From an uncultured Candidatus Saccharibacteria bacterium (GTDB lineage Bacteria > Patescibacteriota > Minisyncoccia > Phycocordibacterales > Zambryskibacteraceae), in assembly GCA_964608585.1 (NCBI GenBank), contig CAZSOL010000001.1, positions 168,290 to 232,289 on the forward strand: a DNA stretch of 64,000 nucleotides, read 5' to 3'. A program made the position numbers and the translations under genes. The notes below the pieces were generated by a model. That model saw only the letters and a program-made list of their open reading frames with translations, was not told the origin of the DNA and made no database searches. Shown here in pieces: positions 35,402 to 43,032 of this stretch (positions are counted from its first letter, which is position 1; each line of letters starts with the position of its first letter).

Positions 35402-36640
35402 ATGTCAGACCAAAACACACAAGACCGAGATCACAAGAAGTTGGGTAAGGAGCTAGAGCTCTTCACCTTCTCCGACGCTATAGGCAAAGGTCTTCCCCTT
35501 TGGCTTCCTAAAGGGGCCACTGTTCGTCGTGAGCTTGAGCGCTTCATAGTAGATGAGGAGATAAAGCGAGGGTACCTACACGTTCGAACCCCAGATATCG
35601 CCAAACTTGACCTGTACAAGAAGTCTGGGCACTACCCAATGTATAAAGACAAAATGTATGCGCCAATTGTCATAGATGATGAAGAGTTTATGCTCCGACC
35701 AATGACCTGCCCTCACCACTTCGAGCTTTATCTCTCAAAGCCAAGAAGCTACCGAGACCTACCTATGCGTATAGCTGAGCTTGCTCAGCTCTACCGCTAT
35801 GAGCAATCAGGAGAGCTTATGGGGCTATTAAGAGTGAGAGCTTTCTGTCTCTCTGACGCTCATATTATTTGTAAGGATGAGGAGCAAGCGGTGGAAGAAA
35901 TCAGTAAAGCTTTGGACCTAATTGAATACGTAAACAGCGTTTTTAGTCTGGAAATGGGTAAAGATTACTGGTACGTACTTTCAATGGGCGACCGAGGTAA
36001 TACTGAGAAGTATTACAAAGATGATGCAGGTTGGGAGAAGGCGGAAGATCTATTACGCAATGCAATGAAGAAGCGTGGAGTGAAGTTTGAAGAAGTTAAG
36101 GATGATGCCGCCTTTTACGGACCTAAGATTGATGTGAATATGAAGAACGCAAACGGAAAGGAGGATACAGCATTTACTGTTCAGTATGATCTCTCTTCCC
36201 CTCACAGGTTTGATCTCAAATATACTGGAGAAGATGGTAAGGACCACTCAGCCTTTGTGGTACATCGCTCATCTATTGGTGCTGTAGAGCGTATCATGGC
36301 ATTCCTTATTGAGAAGTATGCTGGGGCCTTCCCTCTCTGGCTCTCACCTGTGCAAGTTAAGGTCTTGCCTATCGGTGAAGCGCATTTTGAGTACGCTAAG
36401 AAAGTCTTTGCAGAACTTAAGGAAGCTGGTATCCGCGCAGAACTCGATGAGTCCAATGAGAGCTTGGGCAAGAAGATAAGGAACGCCAAGACGGAAAAGG
36501 TCTTCTACACCCTAGTCATAGGCGACAAGGAGGTCGCAGACAACCAAGTGACTGTGGAAGGTCGCGAGGAAAAACTCGGCACAATGTCAGTCGACGAATT
36601 TATATCAAAAGTTAAGGAGGAAGTTAAACGTCGAGTGTAG
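35402..36640 (+). CDS. thrS: threonine--tRNA ligase, catalytic core plus anticodon-binding domain only (no TGS or editing domains)
   Basis: Begins RDHKKLGKELELFTF, equivalent to the catalytic-domain start of canonical ThrRS. Class II motifs and the C-terminal anticodon-binding domain are present. 412 aa versus ~640 canonical. Confidence 0.85.
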   Translation: MSDQNTQDRDHKKLGKELELFTFSDAIGKGLPLWLPKGATVRRELERFIVDEEIKRGYLHVRTPDIAKLDLYKKSGHYPMYKDKMYAPIVIDDEEFMLRPMTCPHHFELYLSKPRSYRDLPMRIAELAQLYRYEQSGELMGLLRVRAFCLSDAHIICKDEEQAVEEISKALDLIEYVNSVFSLEMGKDYWYVLSMGDRGNTEKYYKDDAGWEKAEDLLRNAMKKRGVKFEEVKDDAAFYGPKIDVNMKNANGKEDTAFTVQYDLSSPHRFDLKYTGEDGKDHSAFVVHRSSIGAVERIMAFLIEKYAGAFPLWLSPVQVKVLPIGEAHFEYAKKVFAELKEAGIRAELDESNESLGKKIRNAKTEKVFYTLVIGDKEVADNQVTVEGREEKLGTMSVDEFISKVKEEVKRRV

Positions 36641-38705
36641 CTTTCTTGGCGTTGGATTGGATGAAGGACTTCCTAGATGGAACGTCGGTGCCCATGAGGA
36701 TATCAAAGACCTTGTCGGCCTCTCGAGCATCCTCTACATTGACCTGCTTTAATATCCTCGCTTTAGGATCCATAGTAGTCTCCCAGAGCTCTTCGGCGTT
36801 CATCTCTCCGAGACCTTTGTAGCGTTGTAGAGATATCTTTGCTGTCTTCTTGCTCTTCACATCTTGCTCATCATCACCTGACTCTTCTTCCTTTATCTCC
36901 GCGTTCTCCTCTATCACGTCTTCTACATTGATGTCCTTGCCGACAATCTTGTTCTTCTCCTCGTCTGTATATGCATAGTGGACCTCCTTACCCTTCTTTA
37001 TCTTATAGAGTGGTGGTTGAGCAATGTAGACGAAGCCTCCATCTATCACAGGTCTGAAGTGTCTGTAGAGCAAAGTAAGAAGGAGTGTGCGGATGTGTGC
37101 ACCATCAACGTCGGCATCTGTGGCAAGGATTATTTTGTGGTAGCGAAGCTTCTCTATATCAAAGGTATCTCCTATTGCAGTACCCAAGGCAACCACAAGG
37201 TTCTTGATCTGCTCACTCGCGAGCATCCTGTCTAAGCGAGCTCTCTCAATGTTCAGGATCTTACCTCTTAGTGGGAGTATTGCTTGAGTCCTCCTGTCGC
37301 GACCCATCTTGGCCGTACCACCGGCAGAGTCTCCCTCTACGATAAATATCTCACTCTCCTCAGCAGACTTACTCTGGCAGTCAGCAAGCTTACCTGGGAG
37401 AGTCATACCCTCTAGAGCTCCCTTACGAAGTACCGAGTCCTTGGCGGCCTTGGCAGCCTTACGGGCCTTAAGAGCAAGGACAACCTTATTTATAATGGCC
37501 TTGGCGTCATCGGGGTTCTCCTCCAAGAAGGCGGAGAAGGCCTCACCAAAGACAGTAGTTACAGAAGCCTGTGCCTCCACGGACCCAAGCTTACCCTTAG
37601 TCTGACCCTCAAACTGTATCTCGCGAAGCTTGACCGAGATAACTGCAGTGAGCCCCTCAAGCACATCCTCTCCAGTGAAGTTGTCTTCACTCTCTTTGAC
37701 CAAGTTGTTCTTCTTCGCATAAGTGTTGAGTGTCCTTGTGAGAGCGGTCTTAAATCCTGTGACATGCGTACCTCCCTCGGCGTTATAGATATTGTTGGCA
37801 AACGGGAGGATACGCGAGGAGATGTCGTCTACGTACTGGAGAGCTATCTCCACCGTCTCATAGTCGTTGCCGTTGGGTGCTTTGTCTACGTAGAAGATAT
37901 TCTTGTGTACTGGCTTCTGGATCTCGTTCTCAAACTTCACTAGTGACATAAGTCCTCCCTCAAAGTAGAAGGCCATAGATGGCACGTCGAGCCCAAGATC
38001 ACGGATGTAGAAGGCGTCCTCTGACTCCACCATTGCCTCCTCTCGAGCGTCTATAACAGTAATACGCAAGCCCTTCACAAGGTAGGCCTGCTGGCGAAGG
38101 TGGTTCACCACTCTTTTGAAGTCAAAGTTGGTATCTGGGAAGATGGTTGGGTCAGGACGGAAGGTGATGATCGTTCCATTATTTTTGGTAGAGCCTACCT
38201 TCTTCACCGCGGCCTTACGCTTACCAGCGTTGTACTCCTGCATGTAGACACTACCGTCCTTGTGTACCTGTGCAATGGTGTGAGTTGAGAGAGCGTTCAC
38301 CACCGAGGCACCCACACCGTGGAGTCCTCCGGAGACCTTGTAACCGTCACCGCCGAACTTTCCTCCTGCGTGGAGAGTGGTCATGATGGTCTCAAGTGCT
38401 GAGACCTTCGTCTGCTTGTGTACATCAATAGGGATACCTCGACCGTTGTCTACCACTCTTATGTAATTACCAGGAAGAAGTGAGACCTCAATATCGTTGG
38501 CAAAGCCTCCCATCGCCTCGTCACGAGAGTTATCAAAGATCTCCCAAATGAGGTGGTGTAAACCGTCAGGGCCGGTTGTACCGATGTACATACCTGGTCT
38601 CTTTCTGACCGGATCGAGCCCCTCAAGAACGGTAATAGATTCGGCAGTGTAGTGATGCCCACTACCTTTTGTTTTAGGGTTATTTTTAGCCTTTTTTTCT
38701 GCCAT
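36624..38705 (-). CDS. gyrB: DNA gyrase subunit B
   Basis: GHKL ATPase N-terminal region, Toprim with the EGDSAGG motif and PLRGKILN. 693 aa, lacking the E. coli insert. The 3' end overlaps thrS by 17 nt, convergently. Confidence 0.88.
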   Translation of the reverse strand: MAEKKAKNNPKTKGSGHHYTAESITVLEGLDPVRKRPGMYIGTTGPDGLHHLIWEIFDNSRDEAMGGFANDIEVSLLPGNYIRVVDNGRGIPIDVHKQTKVSALETIMTTLHAGGKFGGDGYKVSGGLHGVGASVVNALSTHTIAQVHKDGSVYMQEYNAGKRKAAVKKVGSTKNNGTIITFRPDPTIFPDTNFDFKRVVNHLRQQAYLVKGLRITVIDAREEAMVESEDAFYIRDLGLDVPSMAFYFEGGLMSLVKFENEIQKPVHKNIFYVDKAPNGNDYETVEIALQYVDDISSRILPFANNIYNAEGGTHVTGFKTALTRTLNTYAKKNNLVKESEDNFTGEDVLEGLTAVISVKLREIQFEGQTKGKLGSVEAQASVTTVFGEAFSAFLEENPDDAKAIINKVVLALKARKAAKAAKDSVLRKGALEGMTLPGKLADCQSKSAEESEIFIVEGDSAGGTAKMGRDRRTQAILPLRGKILNIERARLDRMLASEQIKNLVVALGTAIGDTFDIEKLRYHKIILATDADVDGAHIRTLLLTLLYRHFRPVIDGGFVYIAQPPLYKIKKGKEVHYAYTDEEKNKIVGKDINVEDVIEENAEIKEEESGDDEQDVKSKKTAKISLQRYKGLGEMNAEELWETTMDPKARILKQVNVEDAREADKVFDILMGTDVPSRKSFIQSNAKKATLDV

Positions 38706-38729: not shown

Positions 38730-39302
38730 TTATCCTATAAAGATAGCGTATTTACGCCAGTATTTGAGGAATTCCTCTCCTGATATCTCTACCCCTTCTT
38801 TTGGACTAATGTTGCTTGGATCGTGTATAAGGAAACCATTATCACTATGCCCCACAACCACAACCATATGTGAGTCAGAGACAGAACCAAATCCAGGTAA
38901 GAAAGATACAATTACTGGGACATTATTATCTAGAGACTTTTTTATTCTCTTTAAGCCCTCATCTCTTAAAGCATCACTCCAAATACTTGGAGTAGTCTCC
39001 CCTGTTTCAATATTTATAGTATCACTCCTAAATTCTTCCTTATATGCTGGCACACCATGGTTATGAGCGAGCCACACAAGAGCATCGTGCTTCCAACCAT
39101 TTTGAGGATTATACAAGCCACCACTCATCGCTAAGGCCTCTGTAAGCAGATCTGAGGCACTAGGCATGTCTACAGAATTATTTTTTCCATAAAAATCTAA
39201 GCACATCTTCAAACAAACAATCGCACAAGATCTCTCTCGCCAATCTTCTGGAACCGATGAATCACTTTGGGGAACAAATTTTACTAAAAGCTTTTTATTC
39301 AT
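38730..39302 (-). CDS. peptidase C39-like cysteine peptidase domain protein
   Basis: ERSCAIVCLKMCLDFYG resembles the C39 catalytic-Cys block, HMVVVVGH the His block and IHDP the Asp block. Confidence 0.5.
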   Translation of the reverse strand: MNKKLLVKFVPQSDSSVPEDWRERSCAIVCLKMCLDFYGKNNSVDMPSASDLLTEALAMSGGLYNPQNGWKHDALVWLAHNHGVPAYKEEFRSDTINIETGETTPSIWSDALRDEGLKRIKKSLDNNVPVIVSFLPGFGSVSDSHMVVVVGHSDNGFLIHDPSNISPKEGVEISGEEFLKYWRKYAIFIG

Positions 39303-39876
39303 GTTTAATCCAATTTATTAGACTTTCAGCACTGCGTAAATCCGGCCGGTCTTCTGGCACCTCAATAACATATCTCTCGTCTTCATTGAGGATAAAACGC
39401 TTATAACCCATAAACCCGGTTGGATAATATTTAGAATCAACAATCTTCTCTCTAACAACCTTACCGTAGCCCATACTTACACCACCGGCATGTATCATCT
39501 CTCCGTTGCCAATATACAAACCATTATGACCCATCTTATCTTCCGAGATATCTGTACGGTTACTCTTGAAGAAGACTATATCGCCCGGCTTAGCATCTAC
39601 TTCAGAGACAATCTCACCAGAACGATACTGGTCATCACAAATTCTTGGTATAGCTATACCAGCCTCCACGTGTAAATAAGCCGTAAGAGAAGAGCAGTCA
39701 AAAGAATTAGGACTATCACGCAAAACACTTGAACCAAACTTATACGGCACACCAATCAAGCTTTCAGCCAAGGAAACAACTCTTTCTCTGGGCTTCACTT
39801 TTCTCCAACTCAAACCACGACTATTCAGTTCTTCCTCGCTTACATCATTAACTGATAGGCCGACTCTGTAGATCAT
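39295..39876 (-). CDS. NlpC/P60 family cell-wall peptidase
   Basis: Catalytic Cys in FDCSSL and His in GHNGLYIGNGEMIHA. Overlaps the C39-like gene by 8 nt. Confidence 0.75.
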   Translation of the reverse strand: MIYRVGLSVNDVSEEELNSRGLSWRKVKPRERVVSLAESLIGVPYKFGSSVLRDSPNSFDCSSLTAYLHVEAGIAIPRICDDQYRSGEIVSEVDAKPGDIVFFKSNRTDISEDKMGHNGLYIGNGEMIHAGGVSMGYGKVVREKIVDSKYYPTGFMGYKRFILNEDERYVIEVPEDRPDLRSAESLINWIKHE

Positions 39877-41024
39877 GAGACTCTTATGGTTCCTTGGTAA
39901 TCCTTAACTGTCATCTCCTCAACCTTTTTGTGGAGCTCGTTCACCTCCTCGTTTGTCAAAGTCTTGTTTAAGTCTCTGTAGGTAATCCTCCAAGTGTAGC
40001 TCATCTTACCCTCACCGAACTTTTGCGCATTCTCGTACTTATCTATTAACGCCACCTCCTCCACGTTCTCCCCACCGATGTCGCGGATAGCATCAAAGTA
40101 GTCGTTCAACACGAAGCTCTCTTTATCCACGACGAAGGAGATGTCGCGTACCACAGGTGGAAACTTACTAACCTCCTTATACTTGTTGCCAAGGACAAGT
40201 TGCTTCTTCACCCTCTCATCCTCTGACCAAAGGAGTCTAATGTCTGGGAGCTCCATAGAGACGATAGCCAACCTCTCAAGCCCAAAGCCAAAGGCCCAAC
40301 CCGTCCACTTGGTACTATCAATTCCAAACTTCTCCAAAACACTTCCCTTCACCACCCCACTGCCTAATATCTCAACCCACTTACCATCCTTGTCTACTTC
40401 CATCTCAAGAGATGGATGAGTGTATGGGAAGGTATCTGGATTAAAGCGGGTAACGACATTCTCACCGAAGACCGCCTTAGCAATAGCAGACAGAACATTC
40501 TTTAGCTCTTCCTCCCCAATAGTCTCCTTTTCTTTTGGAGCTAAGTACCAACCATCAAGTTGATGGAAGACGTTCATATGGTTCCTGTCTATCTCGTCCT
40601 TCCTATATACCTTGCCATGAGAGAAGCACCCAACCGCTTCGCCTCTTGCCATCCTCTCCTTCACATCCTTCTCTTGCAGATAGTAATACCACATCACCGT
40701 GGTATGCGTACGCAAAATATTTTTGTCATCTACATAGTAAGTATCAGACTTACTCCTTGCTGGATGGTCAGCCGGGAAGTCGAAGAGATCAAAGCTGACA
40801 TCGGCTGGCACTATCTCAGGTGTCTCTATGACATCAAAATTTTTGAAATCATCTTGAGCAAGTATTCTCTTGACCATCTCACTCAATGGACTTCCATCAG
40901 TTCTTGATAGATCCTTCATAGCGAGATACCTCTTAATCCTGAACGCCTCAGAGTCTGTTCTGGACTCAAGGTATTTTAGTAACTTTTCCTGCTCATCTAG
41001 AGCTACTTTATAGGTTTTTTGCAT
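39873..41024 (-). CDS. pheS: phenylalanine--tRNA ligase alpha-type catalytic domain fused to a C-terminal FDX-ACB anticodon-binding domain (single-chain, mitochondrial-type architecture)
   Basis: FDFPADHPARSKSDTYY (motif 2 region) and GFGLERLAIV (motif 3). The C-terminal ~95 aa (ISFVVDKE...GEGKMSYTWRITYRDLNKTLTNEEVNEL) match the FDX-ACB domain normally found at the PheT C-terminus. No long N-terminal coiled coil. Confidence 0.75.
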   Translation of the reverse strand: MQKTYKVALDEQEKLLKYLESRTDSEAFRIKRYLAMKDLSRTDGSPLSEMVKRILAQDDFKNFDVIETPEIVPADVSFDLFDFPADHPARSKSDTYYVDDKNILRTHTTVMWYYYLQEKDVKERMARGEAVGCFSHGKVYRKDEIDRNHMNVFHQLDGWYLAPKEKETIGEEELKNVLSAIAKAVFGENVVTRFNPDTFPYTHPSLEMEVDKDGKWVEILGSGVVKGSVLEKFGIDSTKWTGWAFGFGLERLAIVSMELPDIRLLWSEDERVKKQLVLGNKYKEVSKFPPVVRDISFVVDKESFVLNDYFDAIRDIGGENVEEVALIDKYENAQKFGEGKMSYTWRITYRDLNKTLTNEEVNELHKKVEEMTVKDYQGTIRVS

Positions 41025-41089
41025 AAGTCTTTTGTGGCTTTTTGGCCTTTGGCATAAGCCGTATTATACGATATAATGCGAATGTTTCC

Positions 41090-42340
41090 ATGACTATCTA
41101 CGACATCATTATGTATGTCTGGCTCTTCGTCTCGCTCTTCTTCGAGGTCTTTTTGCTTATAACCTACTTTGAGATAAGAGAGGAGCTAAAGAGAGAGAGG
41201 GCTCTCTTAGACTCCGGTCCAAAGAGTTTCCCCTCGGTAACAGTTATCGTCCCTTGCTACAACGAAGAGAGCACTGTGATAAAAACAGTAGAGTCCCTCC
41301 TGTCTCTTGATTACCCCAAAGACAAGTTGCAGATACTTATTGTTAACGATGGGTCTACAGACAACACCTTAGACATCGTCTTAAGTCGGTTTAAGAACCA
41401 CGAGCAAATAAAGATCCACCATAAGGAAAACGGTGGCAAGCACTCTGCTCTCAACTTCGCCATAAGTCATGCAGAGACCGAGCTTATAAGCTGTCTAGAT
41501 GCAGATTCCTTTGTGGAGAAGGAGACTCTAAAGAGGATGATCCCCTTCTTTGAAAACAGAGAGACGATGGCCGTCATCCCTTCGGTAAAGATATGGGAGC
41601 CTAAGAGCATACTCCAACATATACAGAAGGTTGAGTATAGCTGGGGGATCTTCCTAAGACGCCTACTCTCCTCTCTCAATGCCCTTTATGTGACCCCAGG
41701 GCCCTTCTCAATCTTTAGGACCAAGGTCTTCAAAGAGCTTGGTGGTTACAAACACGCCCACCATACCGAAGATATGGAGATGGCAATGAGGATGCAGAAA
41801 AATGGATACAAGATTGTTAATTCTCACAGCGCCTTCGTCTACACTGTTGGTCCAGAAAAGCTCAAAGGCTTGTATAAACAAAGAGTCAGATGGACGTACG
41901 GTTTCCTCAATAACGTCATAGACTACAAAGATATGTTCTTCAACAAGAAGTTTGGCAACATTGGCCTACTGATCTTACCTGTAGCTACAGTCTCTGTCTT
42001 TGCCATTATCTATATGTCTATCATGGGAGTGTTAGAAGTGTTCAACAGGATTGGAGAAGAATATCTAAGGTACGAGGCTGTCGGCTTCACATACTCACTT
42101 CCAAGTTTTGGCTCTATAAACTGGTTTACCATAAACCTTGGAGCACTCTTCTTCATCTCTCTGACGATCCTCTCTCTAACCATGTTCATAATCTATCTAT
42201 CACTCAGGCTCTCTGATGGTAAGTTCAAGTTTACTCGCGGGATCCTCTACTACTTCCTCGTTTATATCTTTATTGTCCCTCTCTGGCTTACCAAGGCCAC
42301 TTATAGTACTATCTCGAGGCAAAGCATTACTTGGAGATGA
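41090..42340 (+). CDS. family 2 glycosyltransferase, processive (cellulose/chitin/PNAG-synthase-like)
   Basis: DGSTDNT, DAD and QRVRWTYG (QxxRW) motifs, with TM helices at both ends. Start chosen at ATG 41090; the track ORF starts at a TTG. Confidence 0.75.
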   Translation: MTIYDIIMYVWLFVSLFFEVFLLITYFEIREELKRERALLDSGPKSFPSVTVIVPCYNEESTVIKTVESLLSLDYPKDKLQILIVNDGSTDNTLDIVLSRFKNHEQIKIHHKENGGKHSALNFAISHAETELISCLDADSFVEKETLKRMIPFFENRETMAVIPSVKIWEPKSILQHIQKVEYSWGIFLRRLLSSLNALYVTPGPFSIFRTKVFKELGGYKHAHHTEDMEMAMRMQKNGYKIVNSHSAFVYTVGPEKLKGLYKQRVRWTYGFLNNVIDYKDMFFNKKFGNIGLLILPVATVSVFAIIYMSIMGVLEVFNRIGEEYLRYEAVGFTYSLPSFGSINWFTINLGALFFISLTILSLTMFIIYLSLRLSDGKFKFTRGILYYFLVYIFIVPLWLTKATYSTISRQSITWR

Positions 42341-43032
42341 TAGACAACAAGAAATACCTATTTGCCTTCCTAATAACTGCCTTTATCTTTGGGACAGCGG
42401 TCTTTATATCTAACTCTATATCAAACAAGAGGCTCCAAGCCATCAAAGACATCCAAGACCAGCTATCCTTAGACATCTTGGCCTCAGAGACTCAGTCGGC
42501 ATTACTTGAAGAGACTTCTTGCAAACAGCTAAATGGTAACGTACCAGTATCCAAAGCTCTTGCTGAGATAGCCGAGAGACTTGAGGCTGCAGAAGAGCAA
42601 AGAGGAGGAGGTGACGAAGACTTACAAGCTCTAAAGAAGCAGTACTTCTTACTTGAGATACAAGACTACTTGTTTATGAAAAGGGTGGCGGAGAAGTGTG
42701 GTATATACAGCACCTTCATACTCTACTTCTACTCAAGCGAGGAGGAGTGTAGAGACTGTACAAAAATGGGTTACGTCCTAACCTCACTTAGAGAGATCTA
42801 TCCAGATCTTCGTATATACTCCTTTGACTACAACATGGACTTAGAAGCTTTACATACTCTAAGATCCATATATAACCTAGAGGAGACCCTGCCAGCCCTT
42901 GTGATAAATGGTGACCCATACTACGGCTTCAGGTCTATGGAGGAGCTTGTAGAGTCCGTCCCTGCCCTCTCCCGCCTAACAAAGAAGGAGGACACCCCCT
43001 CTTCCACTTCAACCAATTCTCAAGTAAGATAG
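42337..43032 (+). CDS. membrane-anchored protein with CxxC motif (possible thioredoxin-like fold)
   Basis: ATGA overlap with the GT2 stop, an N-terminal TM helix, and EECRDCTKMGY. Function unknown. Confidence 0.45.
   Translation: MIDNKKYLFAFLITAFIFGTAVFISNSISNKRLQAIKDIQDQLSLDILASETQSALLEETSCKQLNGNVPVSKALAEIAERLEAAEEQRGGGDEDLQALKKQYFLLEIQDYLFMKRVAEKCGIYSTFILYFYSSEEECRDCTKMGYVLTSLREIYPDLRIYSFDYNMDLEALHTLRSIYNLEETLPALVINGDPYYGFRSMEELVESVPALSRLTKKEDTPSSTSTNSQVR

Follow-up and report, generated by a model that had tools for sequence, protein, structure and literature searches.

An NlpC/P60 peptidase domain within the B5 domain of a phenylalanyl-tRNA synthetase β subunit, its apparent free relic and a post-pheT C39_2 peptidase in Patescibacteria

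We analysed a 64-kb window from an uncultured Candidatus Saccharibacteria bacterium (assembly GCA_964608585.1, contig CAZSOL010000001.1, positions 168,290 to 232,289), in which three overlapping genes on the minus strand encode a phenylalanyl-tRNA synthetase (PheRS), a 193-aa protein with an NlpC/P60 peptidase domain and a 190-aa cysteine peptidase of the C39_2 type. The initial annotation of this locus described two open reading frames (ORFs) that overlap by 8 nt between a pheS-like gene and gyrB, an arrangement that we confirm, and read them as cell-wall or peptide-processing peptidases. Sequence comparison now largely shows the “NlpC/P60” gene to be a leftover B5 domain of the PheRS β subunit (PheT) with an intact peptidase domain inserted in it (B5::NlpC), and the fragment stands alone in the window because the upstream “pheS” is a single-chain PheRS. 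The features of the cluster are as follows.

39873–41024, minus strand: single-chain mitochondrial-type PheRS (PheRS-M-like) gene, first in the co-directional cluster
39873–39876, minus strand: 4-nt ATGA overlap of the PheRS-M and B5::NlpC genes
39295–39876, minus strand: B5::NlpC/P60 gene, 193 aa, apparent relic of the PheRS β subunit
39793–39876, minus strand: N-terminal half of B5, about aa 1–28
39382–39792, minus strand: NlpC/P60 catalytic domain, about aa 29–165
39694–39696, 39526–39528 and 39490–39492, minus strand: NlpC/P60 catalytic codons C61, H117 and H129
39298–39381, minus strand: C-terminal half of B5, about aa 166–193, bearing the B5 motif RYVIEVPEDRPDLRSAESLI
39295–39302, minus strand: 8-nt overlap of the B5::NlpC stop and the C39_2 start
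38730–39302, minus strand: C39_2-type papain-fold cysteine peptidase gene, 190 aa
39267–39269, 39225–39227, 38868–38870 and 38820–38822, minus strand: C39_2 catalytic codons Q12, C26, H145 and D161

Anatomy of the two peptidase genes

Residues 3–190 of the window protein align with residues 301–511 of the PheT encoded at a related locus, L002 (BLASTP, 5e-27; our related loci carry L numbers), that is, end to end. When this PheT is in turn compared with the β subunit of S. haemolyticus, the alignment is broken at residues 443/448 of the solved chain by a 153-aa insert, and because these residues flank the insert, the NlpC/P60 domain lies in one of the turns of B5. At its C-terminus the window protein carries RYVIEVPEDRPDLRSAESLI, which aligns with the B5 motif of the L002 PheT, corresponding to positions 35–67 of the Pfam B5 profile; the Pfam B5 model alone does not detect the window protein, and it is homology together with fold that places the ORF in the PheRS-β B5 family. 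A tblastn search of the 64-kb window with a full PheT found only the B5::NlpC piece and a B8 piece inside the PheRS gene, the B3/4 and B6-7 modules being absent from the window, and the ORF itself carries no B3/4, B6-7 or B8.

The peptidase assignments made at the outset are borne out by Pfam matches above cutoff for both proteins: NLPC_P60 for the 193-aa ORF1 (1.6e-17, 63.8 bits, cutoff 23), and Peptidase_C39_2 (2.5e-11, 44.8 bits, cutoff 24) and Peptidase_C39 (5.5e-9, 36.4 bits, cutoff 22) for the 190-aa ORF2. The NlpC/P60 profile retrieves 7cfl from the PDB at 1.7e-28, and the domain has a papain-like α+β fold. Its catalytic residues, C61 (FDCSS), H117 (GHNG) and H129 (IHA), form a Cys-His-His triad in canonical motifs, and across fused and free homologues C61 is present in all (118/118), H117 in all but one (117/118) and H129 in 108/118. 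The corresponding set in the C39_2 protein consists of C26 (RSCAIV), H145 (SHMVV) and D161 (IHDP), with Q12 at the oxyanion hole. The residues named in the initial annotation were the right ones, all of them unchanged or almost unchanged across the family, and the alignment of the C39-like triad, on which that annotation had staked its assignment beforehand, holds, with Q12, C26, H145 and D161 aligned and invariant. C39_2 proteins of this kind make up a small, distinct family (15 matches in a word-indexed search) that has further invariant residues of its own: H72, N81, Y87, E90, F91, W182 and R183.

We regard both peptidases as cytoplasmic, well folded and intact in their catalytic residues, as predicted from their sequences and models. 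The AlphaFold (AF2) model of B5::NlpC/P60 is compact, with a predicted local distance difference test (pLDDT) score of 94.2, and that of C39_2 is confident (pLDDT 91.2). Neither protein has a signal peptide or transmembrane (TM) segment, the top 19-aa Kyte-Doolittle windows reaching 1.0 in ORF1 and 1.3 in ORF2, in agreement with the earlier remark that no obvious signal peptide is present. Pfam finds no SH3b, LysM or PG_binding wall-targeting domain, comparison with PHROGs gives generic lysin similarity only, and neither protein matches trans-editing families (YbaK/ProX, AlaX, DTD or the free B3/4-like CtdA) in Pfam or NCBIfam. For the B5::NlpC relic the rate of nonsynonymous change (dN) is about 0.27–0.29 and that of synonymous change (dS) is saturated, at >2.5 or undefined, so that dN << dS is usable qualitatively only.

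Fused and free forms across Patescibacteria

Related loci are of two types. In type B (L002, L004/5, L007/8), a 244–266-aa PheS is followed by a 787–806-aa PheT, in which Pfam recognises B3_4, NLPC_P60, B5, tRNA_synthFbeta and FDX-ACB, and then by C39_2. Type A, to which the window, L001, L009 and others belong, has a 378–383-aa PheS with FDX-ACB, then the NlpC/P60 gene of ~193 aa and finally C39_2. An exhaustive HMMER search of 1.84 billion representatives with a profile of the free family returned 181 matches at E <= 1e-30; the best 150 of these include 117 with a single full-length match, of which 91 are longer than 700 aa and matched at about residues 290–520, while seven are free proteins of 199–233 aa. 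Ten out of ten long proteins sampled carry B3_4, NLPC_P60, B5, tRNA_synthFbeta and FDX-ACB above Pfam cutoffs, and the Joint Genome Institute (JGI) annotates the long proteins as PheRS β subunits. The NlpC/P60 insert within PheT thus spans more than 100 clusters at 50% identity, overturning the impression of a rare fusion given by a word-indexed search with the PheT B5::NlpC segment.

Species-representative genomes were also scanned with a degenerate DNA pattern for DxPxxFDCSS-13aa-PRxxxDQ, which matched at least 120 loci, nearly all in Patescibacteria to judge by the record titles (Paceibacterota/Parcubacteria, Campbell-, Zambryski-, Lloyd-, Yonath- and Wolfebacteria); the pattern also caught unrelated genes of the NlpC/P60 kind, about 10 in all, from Bacillaceae and others, which served solely as an outgroup. 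ORF calling and annotation with hidden Markov models (HMMs) of the listed loci gave at least ~100 fused and at least 11 free forms, or 12 with the window’s own. Wherever the gene upstream of a free B5::NlpC gene could be identified (9/12; it was not called for L006, L015 and L067), it is a PheS+B8 fusion gene. All 12 sampled free forms have an intact ORF and triad, at 36–74% identity and in at least eight clusters at 50% identity, and in a neighbour-joining (NJ) tree of B5::NlpC segments they fall into two pure clades of six, in a tree whose outgroup is not monophyletic. The B3/4 editing residues persist in the fused PheTs (His in 90/91, Glu in 73/91), and we therefore rejected the idea that the NlpC/P60 domain stands in for a degenerate editing site. 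The fused PheTs, such as that of L002 (2633–4996), begin at the equivalent of canonical PheT residue ~150–160 and lack the B2 OB-fold domain, in agreement with the report that many PheRS β subunits of the candidate phyla radiation (CPR) are without B2 (PMC5370408).

C39_2 is essentially a post-pheT gene and not an obligate partner of the insert. Among the loci listed, PheT::NlpC genes with downstream room have C39_2 adjacent in 39/74 cases and within 3 kb in six more (45/74), and it follows 6 of 10 free relics; in the 33 loci without it (29 fused, 4 free), gyrB directly after pheT or the relic is the largest single class (9/33). The reverse test started from 59 metagenome loci encoding C39_2 relatives, and in about 53 of the 55 informative ones the gene lies after pheT or the relic. 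It directly follows PheT::NlpC or the relic in 34/59, follows a PheT C-terminus in 10/59 (eight on truncated contigs, two after complete PheTs), and in 9/59 has PheT::NlpC 0.6–1 kb upstream with unrelated genes between; the only informative locus without pheT upstream of C39_2 is L187. The two complete PheTs, of 626–630 aa (L146, 138–2653; L159, 1403–4543), have C39_2 directly downstream and no NlpC/P60 insert, and because of these the association of C39_2 with pheT is independent of the insert. The initial annotation had suggested that the neighbourhood be followed in relatives: the gene pair does recur, as PheT::NlpC followed by C39_2.

The small, unrelated genes that separate pheT::NlpC from C39_2 in L167, L172, L175–L178 and L180–L182 encode MazF/PemK toxins accompanied by a putative antitoxin, NUDIX hydrolases and, in one case, a Peptidase_S51. 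We considered and rejected the idea that a third gene is conserved at this junction, as these ORFs are cargo, which the junction appears to tolerate.

A single-chain PheRS and the surroundings of the cluster

The position of the “pheS” neighbour was given correctly in the initial annotation; its identity was not, the gene encoding a single-chain PheRS of the mitochondrial type. In Pfam its product has a class II catalytic module (tRNA-synt_2d, aa 48–275, 6.6e-55) and, at the C-terminus, an FDX-ACB domain for anticodon binding (aa 286–381, 4.7e-22). Human mitochondrial PheRS is the best match of known structure, aligned over both of these parts (4e-60, 207 bits), against 9e-36 and 127 bits for the best bacterial α chain, and identity to the human enzyme (FARS2) is 38–45% in all three aligned blocks, compared with 30% to the PheS of type-B related Paceibacteria and 32% between its anticodon-binding domain and the type-B B8. 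By architecture and closest similarity the window enzyme is a mitochondrial-type PheRS, predicted to be monomeric; it has no editing domain, and the single-chain form is common to at least 12 species-level Patescibacteria genomes. Monomeric PheRS was described in a 2010 review as mitochondrial and prokaryotic PheRS as invariably heterotetrameric (PMC3275996), and we found no later report of a bacterial monomeric PheRS in the searchable literature. These bacteria may have acquired the single-chain enzyme from a eukaryote, or the mitochondrial enzyme may have had a bacterial source.

The threonyl-tRNA synthetase (ThrRS) of the window (35402–36640, plus strand, 412 aa) aligns with residues 238–640 of S. 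aureus ThrRS and lacks the TGS and editing (tRNA_SAD) domains of the N-terminal part, and relatives with an α-β PheRS have a 580-aa ThrRS with tRNA_SAD. A mitochondrial-type origin was considered for this enzyme too and rejected, as it is a truncated bacterial type. It seems that two synthetases of the window lineage, PheRS and ThrRS, have lost their cis-editing.

Divergence within the three-gene cluster is uneven. The window and L121 share 87% identity in PheRS, 64% in B5::NlpC and 36% in C39_2, and the window and L001 share 63%, 36% and 57%, respectively. This discordance (window vs L121, L056 and L001) suggests either that rates differ greatly or that lineages have exchanged their peptidase genes at this locus.

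Two further features flank the cluster.

36624–38705, minus strand: gyrB, co-directional, after a 24-nt gap downstream of C39_2; the conserved right-hand neighbour
41063–41090, minus strand: promoter-like site upstream of PheRS-M, TGGAAA-16-TATAAT, 10/12 consensus positions, of a kind no more numerous in the region than in shuffled sequence

A −3 overlap of the PheRS-M and B5::NlpC genes recurs in other type-A genomes, and the overlapping junctions are consistent, judging from gene packing, with co-transcription and translational coupling. The locus as a whole is a housekeeping cluster (PheRS, gyrB, ThrRS and dnaE), and PADLOC gave no match to a model of an anti-phage defence protein. Adjoining the PheRS gene, two proteins are encoded at 41042–43032 (plus strand): a multi-pass glycosyltransferase of family 2, which has 432 aa and is chitin/cellulose-synthase-like, and one of 233 aa for which Pfam gives no match; the same pair lies upstream of pheS in L001, L002, L004 and L009, a case of conserved synteny.

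Possible roles and comparison with known systems

We favour, at a probability of about one in two, an explanation that combines the anatomy and history of a PheT relic with cytoplasmic hydrolysis of γ-D-glutamyl-type peptides. In a large clade of Patescibacteria (Paceibacteria/Parcubacteria), an NlpC/P60 domain is inserted into a turn of the non-catalytic B5, a surface domain likely to tolerate it, and in the simplest history the ancestor of the window lineage would have carried pheS, pheT::NlpC and C39_2. A single-chain PheRS would then have taken over in situ from the α2β2 enzyme, and PheT would have been deleted save for the B5::NlpC segment, left between the PheRS and C39_2 genes. Because the relic and its catalytic residues are conserved in at least eight clusters, the peptidase appears to have a selectable function without the rest of PheT, and survival of the relic in the absence of PheT fits an autonomous enzyme. 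The link with PheRS would be historical and expression-related, through insertion into a constitutively expressed essential gene. In both papain-fold enzymes, a Cys nucleophile and a His base would form and then hydrolyse an acyl-enzyme. For the NlpC/P60 domain this chemistry is most likely cleavage of a γ-D-glutamyl-type amide, since the family-wide residues are kept at 38% identity to a murein endopeptidase, and since the enzyme is predicted to be cytoplasmic, as is YkfC of Bacillus, its substrates are probably small soluble peptides. Candidates would be murein stem peptides, taken up or recycled, and C39_2 would cleave the same peptide, or a related one, at a second bond.

Several points weigh against this explanation. 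The assignment to murein peptides derives solely from homology, and we saw no other murein-recycling genes adjoining the locus. The two peptidases are not an obligate pair, because C39_2 is absent after ~40% of PheT::NlpC genes and the L146 and L159 PheTs lack the insert. Moreover, fusion to PheRS in more than 100 lineages, followed by retention beside a replacement PheRS with coupled junctions, is a textbook mark of a functional link to the synthetase, and peptide salvage leaves unexplained why PheRS keeps the insert and C39_2 with it.

The main alternative, a tentative but serious one, is that the module acts on aminoacyl-tRNA or aminoacyl-adenylate, with PheRS-tethered cysteine hydrolases attacking activated phenylalanyl, near-cognate or D-aminoacyl esters or anhydrides; variants would be extra proofreading, thioester-mediated aminoacyl transfer, or hydrolysis of an adenylate-mimicking PheRS inhibitor. 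Papain-fold acyltransferases include LRAT/PLAAT, BtrH and phytochelatin synthase, and enzymes of this kind are found among the structural neighbours. Such a role would suit the fusion inside PheT in more than 100 clusters and the continued coupling of both genes to a replacement PheRS lacking any editing domain, in a lineage whose ThrRS has lost its editing domain as well. It would equally suit the occurrence of C39_2 almost exclusively after pheT, the two insert-free PheTs included, although vertical-descent synteny could alone explain that position. However, the fused PheTs keep their B3/4 editing residues, the distribution of the insert is not complementary to cis-editing, every canonical murein-endopeptidase residue is kept in the NlpC/P60 domain with no indication that the pocket is remodelled, and neither protein resembles known trans-editing families. 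A bolder form of the same idea, which we hold to be slightly more doubtful, is that the PheRS-embedded NlpC/P60 domain and the post-pheT C39_2 constitute a class of cysteine hydrolases or transferases, associated with the synthetase and so far unrecognised, that would work on activated aminoacyl species in proofreading, detoxification or aminoacyl transfer, and that in the window lineage they serve as a trans-acting factor for an editing-free, mitochondrial-type PheRS. If so, the locus would show in a present-day bacterium the same loss of domains and fusion to B8 that gave rise to the mitochondrial enzyme or, alternatively, would record a eukaryote-to-bacterium transfer of it.

Cleavage of proteins by the two peptidases, whether processing of PheRS itself or removal of a Gly-Gly-type modifier as by C39, UfSP or Atg4 peptidases, appears improbable: the conserved neighbourhood holds no gene for a Gly-Gly leader peptide, a ubiquitin-like protein or an ABC transporter, the ORFs that occasionally separate C39_2 from pheT encode unrelated cargo, and the close NlpC/P60 subfamily consists of peptide or murein amidases rather than proteases. 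We consider it very unlikely that the pair is secreted or host-directed, hydrolysing host peptidoglycan or processing effectors. The Patescibacteria are thought to be host-dependent, and the NlpC/P60 domain, which shares 38% identity with the catalytic domain of a clostridial autolysin, also resembles phage tail lysins; the initial annotation proposed that the proteins could act on a host cell wall. That proposal finds no support in proteins that have no export signal, TM segment or wall-binding domain, encoded in a housekeeping cluster with no secretion-system or ABC-transporter genes adjacent, when the domain is in most relatives internal to a cytoplasmic ~790-aa synthetase subunit. The suggested peptidoglycan-remodelling or effector/toxin-processing module is likewise unsupported, as the NlpC/P60 ORF is a piece of PheT B5 and neither an ABC transporter nor a bacteriocin-like gene lies beside the C39 gene. 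Both peptidases look like cytoplasmic enzymes tied to a synthetase locus rather than weapons against a host wall. Nor does simple decay, in which the 193-aa ORF would be a non-functional pheT leftover on its way to loss, have more than a slight chance: the ORF can be shown to be a piece of what was once a larger gene, but it is intact with its triad kept in 12/12 free forms sampled, dN is about 0.27–0.29 against saturated dS, the AF2 model reaches pLDDT 94, and the B5::NlpC start overlaps the PheRS stop in many genomes.

The domains themselves are ordinary C40 and C39_2 members by sequence, catalytic residues and fold; what is new is their arrangement, with NlpC/P60 inside the PheRS-β B5 across a clade, a stand-alone relic, a post-pheT C39_2 family and a bacterial single-chain PheRS. 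We found no description of the NlpC-PheRS fusion, the relic, the post-pheT C39_2 or a bacterial monomeric PheRS in the searchable literature, although domain-architecture databases may list the fusion. Within that literature, a catalytically intact peptidoglycan-type peptidase inside PheRS β lies outside the catalogue of well-studied aminoacyl-tRNA synthetases. Persistence of the relic after the synthetase swap points to a function of the peptidase’s own and offers a small, well-folded 193-aa protein to study, and the presence of a “mitochondria-only” monomeric PheRS in bacteria bears on the origin of that enzyme and on the limits of proofreading loss. For annotation, such ORFs should not be called cell-wall hydrolases or host-interaction factors.

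Compared with known systems, each of the three genes combines familiar and unfamiliar traits. Next to the B5 of bacterial PheT (PF03484; T. thermophilus 1B70/2IY5, S. haemolyticus 2RHS), the window protein lacks B1–B4 and B6–B8, and its B5 is split by an NlpC/P60 domain, which across these proteins measures 137–153 aa. With the NlpC/P60 γ-D-Glu-diamino-acid endopeptidases (PF00877, MEROPS C40), among them C. difficile Acd24020 (7CFL), B. subtilis LytE/CwlO and M. tuberculosis RipA/B, it shares the fold, the Cys-His-His triad and the motifs PY.xG, FDCS, PR..DQ, GD.xF, HxG and IHA, at mostly 25–38% identity to the autolysin catalytic domains. Unlike the C40 autolysins, it lacks a signal peptide as well as any SH3b, LysM or coiled-coil domain for wall targeting, and derives from a cytoplasmic synthetase subunit. 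YkfC of Bacillus (3H41) is a cytoplasmic NlpC/P60 enzyme that cleaves L-Ala-γ-D-Glu from meso-diaminopimelate (mDAP) or Lys in murein peptide recycling; it has N-terminal SH3b domains and is encoded in a ykfABCD/dpp peptide-catabolism operon, whereas the window protein has a split B5, lies in a PheRS-gyrB operon and has a predicted activity only. The C39_2 of the window, set beside Peptidase_C39_2/YvpB-like proteins (PF13529; B. anthracis 3ERV) and the C39 domains of PCAT/ComA (PF03412), is a stand-alone protein of 190 aa with no ABC transporter fused or nearby; no gene for a leader-peptide substrate was found near it, its neighbours being PheRS and gyrB in all contexts examined, and it is not a classical bacteriocin-processing C39. 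Finally, the window PheRS-M has the same two modules as the mitochondrial monomeric PheRS (PheRS-M, human FARS2; 3CMQ/3TUP), an α-type catalytic and a B8-type anticodon-binding module, and both lack an editing domain; unlike FARS2, it is encoded on a bacterial chromosome at the place once taken by pheST, with a β-subunit relic after it.

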